Shown: positions 27,001 to 29,957 of the stretch, one piece after another
Numbering within the stretch: position 1 is the stretch's first letter
How the letters are laid out: each line of letters opens with the position of its first letter
NCBI GenBank assembly: GCA_036338595.1
Contig: JAYZBV010000054.1
Span: forward strand, 1-29,957
DNA: 29,957 nt
Direction of reading: 5' to 3'
DNA from: Planctomycetota bacterium
GTDB taxonomy: Bacteria; Planctomycetota; UBA8108; UBA1146
Position numbers: made by a program

Positions 27001-29957
27001 GAGACGCCACCGTAGATTGTCATCGTGCGGACGCGGGTGTCCCGACTCAACTTGCGAAACTCTTCGTCGATCTGGGTCACCAGTTCGCGAGTCGGGCCGA
27101 CCACCAGCACTCTGGGACCAGGCTTGTGGTTCCGAAGCAGGTGCTCGATGCAGGGGATCGCGAAGGCTGCGGTTTTTCCGGTTCCAGTCTGGGCCAGCCC
27201 CAGCACATCCCTGCCTGCGAGGGCTGCTGGAATGGCAGTGGCCTGTACCGGTCGTGGTTTCGAGTAGTTCGCCTTCTGGATCGCTTTGGCGAGGGGGGCG
27301 ATCAGATCCAACTGGTTGAAATTGGAGATGGTATTCGTATCTGTGCGAGACAAGGGGATCTCCTTGCGTTCCGACTCCTCGCGGGAGGCGGCACCGGGGA
27401 TCACCCTCACAACAGTGGAAGGCAACGGATTGCTGAGTGGCGAGACCCACTGCCCGAAAGTCGGCCAGGGGTCCTGTTGATCGCCGTGGGGCGTATCCCC
27501 ACAGGTTCTGAGCCCAGTATAGCAACTTCGATCCAGGATGTTCTGAATCCTGGAAATTCTTTGTGCTTTTCTCGGCAACGCAGACACCTCTAGAATCGGT
27601 GCGAAGGGACTCCTAGATGACTGACTCCTACCTTCCTCGAGCAGAATACGAGTTTTCCGATCAGCCGATCGGTAGCGAGCAGGTCGACCCCGATCCGATC
27701 GTGCAATTCCGGATCTGGTTCGAGAAGGAAGCGCGAAGGGGCGAGCGAGATGGGAACCGGATGGCACTGGCCACTGCAGATGATGCCGGTCGCCCATCGG
27801 TCAGAATGGTACTTCTCAAGCAATTCGATACCGATGGATTCCTGTTCTTTACCGATTACGGATCTCGAAAGGCGATCGACCTGGAGCAAAATCGCCAGGC
27901 CGCACTGCTCTTCCACTGGCCGCGGTTGCAGCGCCAGGTGCGGATCGAGGGTGCCGTGGATCGTGTGTCGAGGGAGATCTCCGAGCATTACTTCTCGTTG
28001 AGGCCGCGCACCTCTCAGGCCAGTGCTTCGATATCTCAGCAGAGTGAACCTTTACTCGACCGCGATCGCTTCGAGTCAGAGGTGCGAAATCTCGAGAGAG
28101 GGAACCAGCCGATCCCCTGCCCCGAGTCGTGGGGAGGGTATCGGTTGGTCGCCGAGCGCTTCGAGTTCTGGCAGGGGCAACCCGGTCGAACACACAATCG
28201 GATCGTCTACCTGCCCGGTGGCGATGGCTGGCAACGCTCCCAGTTGCAGCCCTGAAGCGTCTCTCCGGGTCGCTTTGCACTCTGAGTGCGTCTATGGCAA
28301 TCTAGGCGCTCCGGGGCGCCCGTAGCTCAACCGGATAGAGCATCGGATTTCTAATCCGAAGGTTCCAGGTTCGAGTCCTGGCGGGCGTACCATATACTGA
28401 ATCCAACGAAAAGATTGGATCCTGATGATGTTCTCTGCACTGCTTCCCGGCATCTTCTTGCTGTCTCTGAGCGCTCCTTCTCTCGTCGCTGGCGCCGAAC
28501 CGGAAATCGGTTTTGCCCCTCCAGTGCGACTGGAAGCCAACGGGGTACCCATCGATGTGACGATCGGCCATGCCGCTCCCTACGTCATCGATTTCGACGG
28601 CGATGGGGTGCGCGACCTGCTGGTCGGGGAATTCGGCGATGTCGACTTTCCGATCGAGCGGCTGCCGAAGCGGTTACAGGAAGCGGCAAAAAAATCGAGT
28701 TACTCGCAGGGGAAGTTGCGCATCTATCGCAATTACGGTTCCGACGAGGAGCCCCTCTTCAAGGGATTCGAGTACCTTCGTGCCGGGCGAGAAGACGCCT
28801 CGATGCCGACCACGTGATGCATCTGCTTCTGTCCACAGTTTGTGGACTACGACGCTGACGGCGATCTCGACATCCTGTCCGGCTCCTACACCGGTGAACT
28901 GTACCTGTTCGAGCGCAACGCCGAGGGTGGTTTCAAGCAGGGACGCTATCTCCTCGACGCCAAGGGCGAAGACCTGAAGGCAAAATCCTCCTCGGTGACG
29001 GTCGAGGCGATCGATGTGGATGCGGATGATGATCTCGATCTGGTGCTGGGAGCTCGCATCGGTTCTGTGGAGGTGTTCGAGAATGTCGGCACCCGTGCCC
29101 GACCCGCCTACGAGGGGAAGTCTCGTCCACTGCTGACCGCCGAAGGCGACAAGGTCAAGGGCAGCAACGCCCACCATGCAGACTGGGACGGCGACGGTGT
29201 GCTCGATCTGGTGCTCGGGAGCGAGTACGGGGGCGTCAACTGGTATCGCAACCTCGGCAGCAACAATGCGCCGAAATACGCCGCCAGCGAGCCGCTGATC
29301 GAAAAGGGCGAGTTCAAGCAGCGCCAGGAAGTCGACGGCCCCGAGGGTGCGGGCTCCCGCACCAAGGTGTTCGTGACCGACTGGAACCACGATGGGCTGC
29401 CCGATCTGCTGGTCGGAGATGTGCAGTGGCTCTACTACACATTACCGCCGCTGACCGCAGAGCAGGAAGCAGAGAAGCTGGCGCTGACACCCGCTTACGA
29501 GGCAGCGGAAGCGGTGCTCGACGAGGCGTACGATTATCGCAACAGTTTCGTCGGCAAGCCCGGTGGCATTCCAGACGATGCGAAAGCCCGTATCGATGAA
29601 GCCTCCAAGGTGTGGAGGCCGCTGGCCAAGAAGATGGCCAAGTTCGACCGCACCAAGTCGAACACCCACGGCTGGGTGTGGCTCTACCAGCAACAGCCGG
29701 CGGTCGAGGGGCAGTAGTCGCCTCTCTTCCCAGATAACAATTTTCAGTTCACAATTTCCATCGCTGGTCGGGTGCTGCGAGTTCAGTTGAACACCTGGAA
29801 GGTAGAATCTTGCCCAAGAAGAAGAAAACCTCAGCTAATCGGTTCAATCTATATGTCATAGACCTCAAGAAAACAGTTCTCAAGGTGCGCAAATTCAATG
29901 AGGTAAATCAGCACTATACCCCTGAAAAAAACAAACCCTGTGTCTATGTCGGGTCTA

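Follow-up and report, generated by a model that had tools for sequence, protein, structure and literature searches.

In the mammalian thioredoxin reductase, the adjacent Cys and Sec of the C-terminal Gly-Cys-Sec-Gly motif close into an eight-membered selenenylsulfide ring, and a separate dithiol centre recharges this ring. In bacteria, a SECIS element (bSECIS) is described as having an apical loop of 3-9 nt with a G in its first two positions, an upper stem of 4-16 bp, a distance of 16-37 nt from the UGA and a minimum free energy of -7.5 kcal/mol or lower (PMC13188914, Fig. 2 legend). The same 2026 review lists 119 selenoprotein families, and the adjacent motifs CU and GxUC occur mostly in metal-binding or organometallic families (Table 1, PMC13188914). 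Selenoprotein candidates listed in 2016 include FG-GAP genes from Planctomycetes whose annotation is split in two at an in-frame UGA, three of the four being positive in bSECISearch (Table S9, PMC4807772); the main text of that paper is silent on them.

Here we analyse a locus in a window of 29,957 nucleotides, the whole stretch of contig JAYZBV010000054.1 from a bacterium of the Planctomycetota (class UBA8108). Two open reading frames lie in one frame. The upstream one (28425 or 28428 to 28817) encodes 130 aa from its first ATG, or 129 aa from 28428, and ends in a TGA at 28815-28817; the downstream one (28842 to 29717) begins with GTG and encodes 291 aa. The first-pass annotation had joined them into a single 429-aa gene with the TGA at codon 130, and this is borne out by their common frame. 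With the TGA read as U, the translation contains ..SMPTT-U130-C131-ICFCPQFVDYDADGD.., and the Sec-spanning segment of the product is ..SMPTT-U-CICFCPQFVDYDADGDLDILSGSYTGELYLFER. The features of the gene that bear on recoding are as follows.

28428 to 29717, forward strand: whole gene, very probably of a selenoprotein, with 429 codons and a TAG stop; another ATG lies one codon upstream (28425).
28428 to 28496, forward strand: probable signal peptide, residues 1-23 (MFSALLPGIFLLSLSAPSLVAGA), judged from sequence; pLDDT is low there.
28797 to 28835, forward strand: dyad loop A124-P136 (A-x-[VI]-P-x-T-U-C-[IV]-x-F-x-P), conserved in alignments A2 and A3.
28815 to 28817, forward strand: UGA codon 130, read here as Sec; TGA in all extracted loci (27 of 27 and 30 of 30) and Cys in 54 of 54 full-length homologues.
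28818 to 28820, forward strand: Cys131, vicinal partner of Sec130, following U in the same 27 and 30 loci.
28822 to 28858, forward strand: putative extended SECIS with a weaker lower helix (alignment columns 8-12 with 40-44), based on covariation.
28831 to 28847, forward strand: putative SECIS upper stem and apical loop, GUCCACA GUU UGUGGAC, over codons C135-P-Q-F-V-D140.

Conservation of the TGA was followed at two levels. A class-level search (E <= 1.4e-25) returned 30 rows, 29 of which span codon 130; 28 of these carry one TGA, the 29th is a 1252-aa frame, and the 30th row ends at a contig end before codon 130, so that the earlier count is reproduced together with its one exception. All 27 class-level loci that were extracted (31-95% identity), and all 30 extracted at the level of the phylum, have the TGA at the homologous codon with a Cys codon next to it on the downstream side. 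A survey of 401 Planctomycetota genomes from 287 genera found matches in 73 genomes and 58 genera, and 75 of the 77 matches have TGA; the other two, from genomes G384 and G413, have Cys-Cys. Among the best 120 database homologues, 54 span the dyad site and have Cys-Cys without exception, whereas the other 66 align only from query residue 139 (one from 147) and are therefore post-TGA fragments. Both groups had been described in the first-pass annotation, on smaller numbers for the Cys-Cys proteins. Its statement that the Cys-Cys dyad of the homologues is invariant stands for the first position, which alternates only between Sec and Cys in the family, and not fully for the second. Cys occupies the Sec position in 46/46 rows of the homologue alignment A2 and the Cys131 position in 45/46; the distant homologue P0211 has C-H in place of C-C, and Cys131 is thus near-invariant. 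In alignments A2 and A3 the surrounding residues A124, V126, P127, T129, C131 and F134 are nearly invariant, while position 130 (C130 in the homologues) and P136 are invariant. A bacterial selenoprotein is expected to keep its UGA at one site among orthologues and to have homologues with Cys in its place, as seen here.

The reading frame is under purifying selection on both sides of the TGA, with dN/dS values against six orthologues of 0.08-0.23 upstream and 0.11-0.24 downstream. This bears on whether the TGA simply terminates translation, in a gene broken in two, a recent pseudogene or a pair of independent proteins, which we consider very improbable. Gene callers do report the 280-300 aa post-TGA piece, as in the 66 database fragments above, but the same TGA is retained down to 31% identity and in 58 genera, with selection acting on both halves. 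Moreover, the signal peptide and blade 1 are encoded upstream of the TGA, so that the 291-aa fragment alone would have neither. Hydrophobic leaders are also found at the start of homologues, and we infer that the protein is exported.

The hairpin begins 13 nt after the UGA and agrees with each of the bSECIS rules given above, with the loop A-GUU-U, a stem of 6-7 bp, a spacing of 19-20 nt and a minimum free energy of -9.6 kcal/mol. Taken alone (21 nt), it has a z of -3.71, and an equally good fold was seen in 0/200 shuffles; the wider 71-nt stretch around the UGA is not exceptional (z -0.95, 33/200 shuffles as good). Third-position entropy was calculated along 430 codons, and the 12 lowest windows all fall within codons 129-145, where the lowest value is 0.39 bits; the gene as a whole averages 1.37 (sd 0.41). 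In no other part of the gene are synonymous sites as constrained as in the SECIS region. Across 43 distinct sequences, 84% of cells in the stem pair, compared with 27-48% when the partners are slid, and two-sided change occurs in 8/12 pairs against a shuffled mean of 4.3, a value matched by 0/500 shuffles. In the upper stem 5/7 pairs covary, also where the amino acids differ; in the lower helix 76.7% of cells are paired and 3/5 pairs show two-sided change. The hairpin lies over conserved codons, and the protein accounts for some of its conservation, as termination at the TGA would allow. However, its wobble positions are frozen despite amino-acid change: column 18 is T in 21/21 sequences of the class, whether the codon is one for Cys, Ser, Gly or Thr. 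The SECIS-like hairpin reported by the first-pass annotation is in this way strengthened by synonymous constraint and by stem covariation across the phylum. A search of Rfam with 28300-29957 (E <= 10) returned tRNA and chance matches only and no SECIS family.

The genome also holds the machinery for selenocysteine. Its tRNA-Sec scores 67.9 bits and is called SeC(tca) by ARAGORN, and selA (526 bits), selB (390 bits) and selD (349 bits, of the Sec type with its own TGA) are present, all four above curated cut-offs. Of the 71 surveyed genomes that carry the TGA form, 70 have selB (E <= 9.2e-83), compared with 282 of 401 in the survey as a whole. In G384 (99% complete), a genome with the Cys form, selB is absent at E <= 1e-50. 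The same holds for G003 (93% complete), which has the TGA form, and this counts against the selenocysteine reading. A genome-wide change of code, in which TGA would encode a standard amino acid in the lineage, is scarcely credible: nothing besides the open frame was found in its favour, whereas TGA serves as the terminal stop codon in several orthologues as well as in the triple-domain forms described below, each propeller has one in-frame TGA, and the Sec machinery is complete. We conclude that the locus is very probably a genuine selenoprotein gene, in which UGA codon 130 encodes selenocysteine.

The protein matches the Pfam families FG-GAP_3 (PF13517; E 8.5e-22, 78 bits, cut-off 26.9) and FG-GAP (PF01839; 34 bits, cut-off 22.1). 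No DsbD_N, peroxiredoxin (AhpC/TSA) or metal-binding Pfam domain was found in its 429 aa, and the UnbV_ASPIC domain is absent here at E <= 0.1, as it is from 15 members across the phylum that were scanned at E <= 1e-4. The Cys form P0083 falls only into unnamed Planctomycetota FG-GAP clusters of a protein atlas. The features of the predicted fold are listed below.

28590 to 28616, forward strand: Ca2+-loop motif of blade 1 (D55-x-D-x-D-G..D63); D55, D59, G60 and D63 are invariant in A2.
28845 to 28871, forward strand: Ca2+-loop motif of blade 2 (D140..D148), right after the dyad loop; D140, D144, G145 and D148 are invariant.
29013 to 29039, forward strand: Ca2+-loop motif of blade 3 (D196..D204); D196, D198, D200, D202 and D204 are invariant.
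29181 to 29207, forward strand: Ca2+-loop motif of blade 4 (D252..D260); D252, W253, D256 and D260 are invariant.
29379 to 29405, forward strand: Ca2+-loop motif of blade 5 (D318..D326); D318, D322, G323 and D326 are invariant.
29457 to 29639, forward strand: predicted helical hairpin (helices 344-372 and 383-404) before the last strand, from DSSP of the model.
29652 to 29687, forward strand: predicted C-terminal strand 409-420 (HGWVWLYQ), placed in the propeller by structural alignment; V417 and W418 are invariant.

The predicted structure model has a pLDDT of 92.7 and a pTM of 0.87. The pLDDT of 87.8 in the first-pass annotation belongs to a separate model run. As a whole, the model finds its best structural alignments among five-bladed propellers (GH62, GH43 and GH32; Z 16.5-17.6, rmsd 3.9-4.0 over 255-265 residues), which cover the range 24..427, and seven-bladed FG-GAP structures are absent among the best 50 entries of either structural list. 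Foldseek comparison with FG-GAP/VCBS structures gave E values of 3e-7 to 1e-4 with TM-scores of only about 0.3, and a profile search of the PDB by sequence gave only marginal matches to integrin alpha-IIb calcium loops (E about 5e-4). The fold best matched by the model is a five-bladed rather than a seven-bladed FG-GAP-type propeller; the propeller with a helical hairpin proposed earlier is retained, and corrected to these five-bladed matches. There are five DxDxDG motifs in the protein, and the blade count is that of the predicted model. DSSP places the dyad loop between strands 126-128 and 137-139.

The domains fused to relatives point towards a role for the dyad. In many of them DsbD_N is joined C-terminally to the propeller, and the Q-x-C...C pair of the fused domain is invariant in 38/38. 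Relatives of ~770 aa consist of propeller, DsbD_N and a BCP-like peroxiredoxin (AhpC/TSA), and in 6/6 of these triple-domain loci the AhpC/TSA domain is complete only when a second TGA (..FYP-x-A-x-TPG-U) is read; in the two that were scanned, the match covers 2-123 of the 124 profile positions (E 1e-28 and 4e-32). Fusions to both domains, already reported in the first-pass annotation, are thus confirmed. The second TGA falls at the peroxidatic Sec position, has its own hairpin downstream and matches PxxxTxxU, a known Sec-peroxiredoxin motif (Table 1, PMC13188914). Our genome encodes a separate DsbD/ScsB-like protein with two DsbD_N domains. A complex prediction in which the natural Cys-form fusion P0008 was divided into its propeller and DsbD_N parts (A3), run without controls, scored 0.01 against a mark of 0.32 and speaks neither for nor against contact between DsbD_N and the dyad. 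A search among longer homologues returned generic multi-repeat FG-GAP/VCBS proteins only and no new informative fusion, and within reach of the literature searches no description was found of a propeller that DsbD_N serves or works with.

Judged from sequence, the dyad is probably a thiol/selenol redox centre, and that the propeller acts as a redox enzyme is suggested by the motif and the domain fusions. A different use of a genuine selenoprotein would be a soft-metal or metalloid site (e.g. for Cu, Hg or Se/S species), with DsbD_N only keeping the Sec-Cys pair reduced. DsbD_N/ScsB systems are linked to copper stress, which speaks for such a site, as do two more Cys close by in this protein, C133 and C135; these two are, however, not conserved, with S, G, T or V in orthologues. 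A metal site is also favoured because the catalogued CU and GxUC motifs are mostly those of metal-binding or organometallic families, among them CopZ-type 2Fe-2S/copper proteins, MerB-like SaoL, HgcA, MbdU and SaoC (Table 1, PMC13188914). The fused peroxiredoxin with its peroxidatic Sec argues instead for peroxide or thiol chemistry, and without a Pfam metal-binding domain in the protein we regard the metal site as unlikely.

It may also be asked whether the propeller, with Sec or with Cys-Cys, is a binding module of the lectin or adhesin type, in which the vicinal pair is only a structural cross-link. The FG-GAP propellers whose structures are solved, namely those of integrin alpha, fungal GlcNAc lectins, CRTAC1 and TcB, serve as binding modules, and five Ca2+ loops are typical of these. 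This account is nevertheless quite improbable: Sec is retained at one site in 75/77 phylum matches, which would be costly for a structural bond, position 130 alternates only between Sec and Cys, and the fusion partners are redox and not adhesion domains. The selenoprotein and redox-dyad readings, taken together, are the account that we favour with somewhat better than even confidence.

We propose that SelB, together with the SECIS hairpin, would allow the UGA to be decoded as Sec, and that the product would be a beta-propeller of the FG-GAP type, with 429 residues and five blades, that is exported and binds calcium. Sec130 and Cys131, in the conserved loop before the innermost strand of blade 2, would form its functional centre. 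The vicinal selenol/thiol pair most likely cycles via an eight-membered selenenylsulfide ring and may exchange electrons with DsbD_N-type carrier domains, which are fused to the propeller in relatives and in this genome would be supplied by the separate DsbD/ScsB-like membrane protein. Redox cycling, the electron donor, the substrate and the propeller face that carries the dyad are all matters that we infer. More tentatively still, and at somewhat less than even confidence, this could be a new kind of cell-envelope selenoenzyme, in which a five-bladed calcium propeller holds a strained selenenylsulfide, is recharged by DsbD_N and in some lineages is fused to a Sec-peroxiredoxin.

Gene neighbourhoods were compared in eight related genomes, five of which were scanned with Pfam (29 ORFs). 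An upstream DEAD-box helicase, pdxH and tRNA-Arg are common to related genomes; downstream genes vary between genera, and no conserved redox partner adjoins the gene in the eight. In a scan for promoters and terminators, promoter-like sites were absent, and the single terminator-like site, which lies on the opposite strand, is within chance expectation. Metatranscriptome contigs held short pieces of relatives only (90-98% alike), two of which bridge the TGA (28760-28910 and 28752-28987); because such libraries can hold DNA, these pieces show neither transcription nor translation.

The family is absent from the 119 families of the 2026 catalogue (Table 1, PMC13188914) and the protein matches no family of NCBIfam 20.0, as the first-pass annotation had stated, but its claim to the first selenoprotein on an FG-GAP propeller is weakened by the FG-GAP candidates of 2016 (Table S9, PMC4807772). 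Literature searches returned no relevant paper pairing selenoproteins with FG-GAP or VCBS, and nothing on Planctomycetota SECIS selenoproteins or bacterial selenocysteine beta-propellers; Deng et al. 2026 and Haft and Tolstoy 2025 could list the family. Neither the deep-Sep supplements (PMC12013277) nor those of the GOS survey (PMC2398784) contain the terms FG-GAP, VCBS, ASPIC or propeller.

Public annotation cuts this family almost everywhere, and since 66 of the best 120 matches are post-TGA fragments, a curated family model would repair hundreds of gene calls. Through this family the selenoproteome would gain a non-thioredoxin fold, and the very large and functionally blank FG-GAP/VCBS class a first testable active-site hypothesis, built on the Sec/Cys-Cys pair and the conserved redox fusions. 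If the redox reading is true, it would be the first catalytic role for an FG-GAP/VCBS propeller, and an oxidant-defence or substrate-reducing machine would be present in roughly one in five of the Planctomycetota genera sampled. The double-Sec fusions would be a natural system for studying two SECIS elements in one mRNA.

Compared with known systems, the locus resembles the bacterial genes with a SECIS inside the ORF, for which E. coli fdhF is the paradigm, in its UGA followed by a coding stem-loop whose small apical loop opens with G-U, and likewise in its Cys homologues and its SelA, SelB, SelD and tRNA-Sec. It differs from catalogued selenoproteins in having no Table 1 entry (PMC13188914), NCBIfam model or Rfam match. 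The 2016 candidates (Table S9, PMC4807772), named from their closest nr matches and compared here by description only, differ in that their Sec aligns to Gly and not Cys in the closest match and in that their label names a UnbV_ASPIC domain; that domain, carried by the ASPIC/UnbV (CRTAC1-like) proteins, was not found in this protein. Adjacent Cys and Sec recall thioredoxin reductase, which serves as a working analogy for the dyad and not as a sign of membership; here the order is U-C and not C-U, the pair would lie in an internal propeller loop and not at a flexible C-terminus, and there is no flavoprotein. With FG-GAP/VCBS structures (integrin alpha, CRTAC1 9etn, Psathyrella lectin 2bwr and TcB 6suf) the protein shares FG-GAP_3/FG-GAP repeats and DxDxDG loops. 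In relation to DsbD-dependent envelope pathways and Sec-peroxiredoxins, relatives carry both domains and this 429-aa protein neither. The Cys-Cys members of the family (among them P0008, P0083 and the genes of G384 and G413) share its architecture at 37-55% identity, from the leader through five FG-GAP repeats and the helical hairpin to the C-terminal HG-x-VW strand, as well as the T-C-C-[IV]-x-F-x-P loop, and differ in having Cys in place of Sec.

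Two gene calls of the first-pass annotation had been joined there into one 429-aa protein with an in-frame TGA, and re-reading of the open reading frames confirmed both the coordinates and the content. The locus contains the following features:

28316-28392: tRNA-Arg(TCT), its 3' end 33 nt ahead of the first ATG of the propeller gene (28425)
28425..28817, forward strand: upstream ORF of 130 aa, terminated by TGA
28831-28847, forward strand: SECIS hairpin GUCCACA-GUU-UGUGGAC, beginning 13 nt past the UGA
28842..29717, forward strand: downstream ORF of 291 aa with a GTG start, sharing the frame of the upstream ORF

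If the TGA is read as Sec, conceptual translation starting at the 28428 ATG yields a protein 429 residues long, with the sequence ..SMPTT-U130-C131-I-C-F-C-P-Q-F-V-D-Y-D-A-D-G-D.. around the site. The protein matches FG-GAP_3 (8.5e-22) and FG-GAP (2.7e-8) in Pfam, and no family in NCBIfam 20.0. Both a putative signal peptide and blade 1 are encoded ahead of the TGA, and the 291-aa fragment could therefore neither be exported nor close the propeller. Related genera share the gene order DEAD-box helicase (minus strand), pdxH (plus strand), tRNA-Arg, propeller gene. Two contigs of relatives from RNA libraries (28317-28484 and 28321-28733) extend from the tRNA-Arg to the 5' part of the propeller gene, which could reflect co-transcription or the presence of DNA in the library. 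A further open frame with a TTG start (LPKKKKTSANRFNLYVIDLKK..) occupies 29811-29957 and continues past the contig end.

The consensus bSECIS model has a loop of 3-9 nt with a G within positions 1-2 (usually N-G-[G/U]-N-N, outer N's paired), a stem of 4-16 bp, a UGA-to-loop distance of 16-37 nt and an MFE <= -7.5 kcal/mol (PMC13188914). The hairpin, previously described as SECIS-like, is indeed positioned 13 nt after the UGA and falls within these limits, with the loop A-G-U-U-U, a stem of 6-7 bp, a spacing of 19-20 nt and an MFE of -9.6 kcal/mol (z -3.71; an equally good fold in 0/200 shuffles). No Rfam family matches it. Because it overlaps the codons for C-P-Q-F-V-D, its conservation alone is little proof, and RNA and protein constraint were separated by two tests, third-codon-position entropy and pairing with covariation. 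With the 430 codons of the gene numbered from the ATG at 28425, the 12 six-codon windows of lowest third-position entropy across 27 distinct orthologous coding sequences all begin at codons 129-140, with a minimum of 0.39 bits at codons 136-141 (gene mean 1.37, sd 0.41). The wobble base ahead of the Pro codon is T throughout, even though that codon switches among Cys, Ser, Gly and Thr. In 43 distinct sequences from the class and phylum, 84% of cells are paired, against 27-48% when the partners are slid by 1-3 columns. Changes on both sides occur in 8 of 12 pairs (shuffled mean 4.3; 8 reached in 0/500 shuffles), and five of the seven upper-stem pairs covary. The stem is maintained despite changes in the protein: CCG..GCG for P..A, CUG..GCA for L..A and CCAUC..GAUGG for P-S..M-D. 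Pairing is weaker in the lower helix (77%). Position 28856 is T in the window and A in several orthologues and two RNA-library contigs of relatives; an A here would restore a U-A pair of the lower helix (alignment columns 10 and 42).

Over 59 genomes of the class, the earlier count was reproduced: 28 of the 29 matches covering codon 130 at E <= 1.4e-25 carry one TGA, the exception being an unrelated 1252-aa frame. All 27 loci extracted at class level (31-95% identity) have TGA at the homologous codon followed by Cys, while C133 and C135 vary. A survey of 401 sampled Planctomycetota genomes with P0263, a distant N-W-U-C-type member, as query (E <= 1e-25) gave matches in 73 genomes and in 58 of 287 genera; 75 of the 77 matches contain the TGA, both others have Cys-Cys at the site, and U-C was found in 30/30 extracted loci. 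The Cys-Cys previously noted in full-length homologues extends to all 54 that span the site among the best 120 of 1571 database homologues; the other 66 of these 120 begin 9-17 residues past the TGA and are thus truncated gene calls. Values of dN/dS against six orthologues are 0.08-0.23 upstream of the TGA and 0.11-0.24 downstream. Several orthologues end in TGA, which thus remains a stop codon in those genomes. In some genomes two or three TGA-containing propeller paralogues occur together (G008:C155:21660-22577; G036:C16:25904-26251; G002:C398:17235-17498; G173:C10), with three matches on the contig of G173, one TGA apiece.

The window's own genome encodes the Sec machinery:

Contig 72, 32145-34795, minus strand: tRNA-Sec, selD and selA (loci L001, L015, L016), head to tail within 2.7 kb
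Contig 108: selB, apart from the other sel genes

The tRNA-Sec scores 67.9 bits and is called SeC, anticodon tca, by ARAGORN; selD itself holds one TGA. In the phylum sample, 70 of the 71 genomes with the TGA form have selB at E <= 9.2e-83 (the exception, G003, is 93% complete), compared with 282 of all 401 genomes above the cut-off; these are raw counts, since related genomes are not independent. In G384, a single-contig, 99% complete genome with the Cys-Cys form, selB was not found at E <= 1e-50.

The propeller family is almost certainly a genuine, widespread selenoprotein family, which combines the ordinary bacterial recoding mechanism with an unusual scaffold. Nearly all of its members are mis-annotated, and the family is missing from NCBIfam 20.0 and, as had been claimed, from the 2026 catalogue, whose Table 1 (119 families) lists nothing under FG-GAP, VCBS or propeller (PMC13188914). 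Full-text searches found nothing relevant on FG-GAP, VCBS or beta-propeller selenoproteins, and the supplements of deep-Sep (PMC12013277) and the GOS survey (PMC2398784) contain no FG-GAP, VCBS, ASPIC or propeller. Split FG-GAP genes of Planctomycetes are listed as selenoprotein candidates in supplementary Table S9 of PMC4807772, with Gly as the aligned residue in the closest match, and the main text is silent on them. They could belong to the present family or to another one; their label names an UnbV_ASPIC domain, which was found in 0/16 family members scanned.

An AlphaFold2 model from 46 aligned sequences has a pLDDT of 92.7 and pTM of 0.87, and there are five largely invariant DxDxDG calcium-loop motifs (D55, D140, D196, D252, D318). 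Foldseek matched seven-bladed FG-GAP structures (TcB, fungal GlcNAc lectins, CRTAC1, integrin alpha-V) at E 3e-7 to 1e-4, with TM only ~0.3. Propellers of GH62, GH43 and GH32 type, which are five-bladed, rank first both in whole-library structural alignment and in a re-examination of Foldseek's top 1000 (Z 16.5-17.6, rmsd 3.9-4.0 A, 255-265 aligned residues over model residues 24-427). We therefore read the predicted fold as a five-bladed propeller closed by a strand at the C-terminus (409-420); ahead of that strand the chain carries an inserted helical hairpin (344-404). In model and alignment, Sec130 and Cys131 lie within a conserved loop (A124-P136) flanked by strands 126-128 and 137-139, the latter running into the second calcium loop. 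In integrin FG-GAP blades the strand ahead of the calcium loop is innermost, and the loop preceding it is on the other side of the propeller from the calcium sites; by this geometry the Sec-Cys pair should be on the 'top' face. Equivalent loops of other blades bear conserved H48, S189, H249/H250, R311 and K313.

The window's protein is a propeller alone, lacking DsbD_N and peroxiredoxin domains. The fusions to DsbD_N-like and AhpC/TSA domains noted earlier were both found in relatives, the latter complete on readthrough of a second TGA. Many members have a C-terminal DsbD_N domain, including Sec forms (a 58%-identical orthologue in G007 and distant N-W-U-C forms), and its Q-x-C...C pair is invariant in 38/38 fused Cys forms. 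Of five database fragments, three (P0029, P0030, P0023) end in ..WFYP[KM]AGTPG and two (P0033, P0035) in ..WFYPKASTPG, the exact place of the peroxidatic Cys in peroxiredoxin. The genomic loci corresponding to such ends are:

L090-L095 (e.g. L090:2554-4872): ORFs of ~770 aa encoding propeller(U-C), DsbD_N and a BCP-like peroxiredoxin, with a third TGA as stop

The codon after ..TPG is TGA in all six, followed by 102 residues to the next TGA; in two, readthrough completes the AhpC/TSA domain (E 1e-28 and 4e-32, covering profile positions 2-123 of 124). The second UGA precedes a 7-bp hairpin, GGGGUUC-CGUGAUC-GAACCCC, and fits the known Sec-peroxiredoxin motif PxxxTxxU (PMC13188914). These relatives, present in databases solely as fragments ending ..TPG, are thus double selenoproteins. 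Upstream of the orthologue in G007 lies a 1222-aa protein kinase and FGE-sulfatase fusion (L054:791-4459, minus strand), and the 1112-aa P0225 joins kinase, FGE-sulfatase and FG-GAP repeats (39% identity to the window's propeller over 73% of its length).

The gene neighbourhood of the orthologues gave no clue to function; the family's domain fusions point to thiol/selenol redox chemistry. The main rival is that the Sec-Cys pair forms a soft-metal site, as adjacent Cys/Sec motifs are mostly metal-related in the 2026 catalogue (PMC13188914). The window's genome also encodes a membrane protein of DsbD/ScsB-like type that carries two DsbD_N domains (Y-Q-A-C-D-A-K-Q-C, resembling the fused type) and, on contig 81:

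L057:1342-2319: secreted DsbD_N-domain protein, 325 aa (W-Q-V-C-E-K-T-C)
L057:2374-2931: exported thioredoxin-like protein, 185 aa, following it

The thioredoxin-like protein has a single Cys in the usual CxxC region (E-S-G-C-P-A-V). The best reading is that Sec130-Cys131 would form a vicinal selenol/thiol centre, which DsbD_N-type carriers may recharge. Such a redox mechanism is plausible, and the propeller dyad would then work in a mode resembling that of mammalian thioredoxin reductase at its Cys-Sec end.
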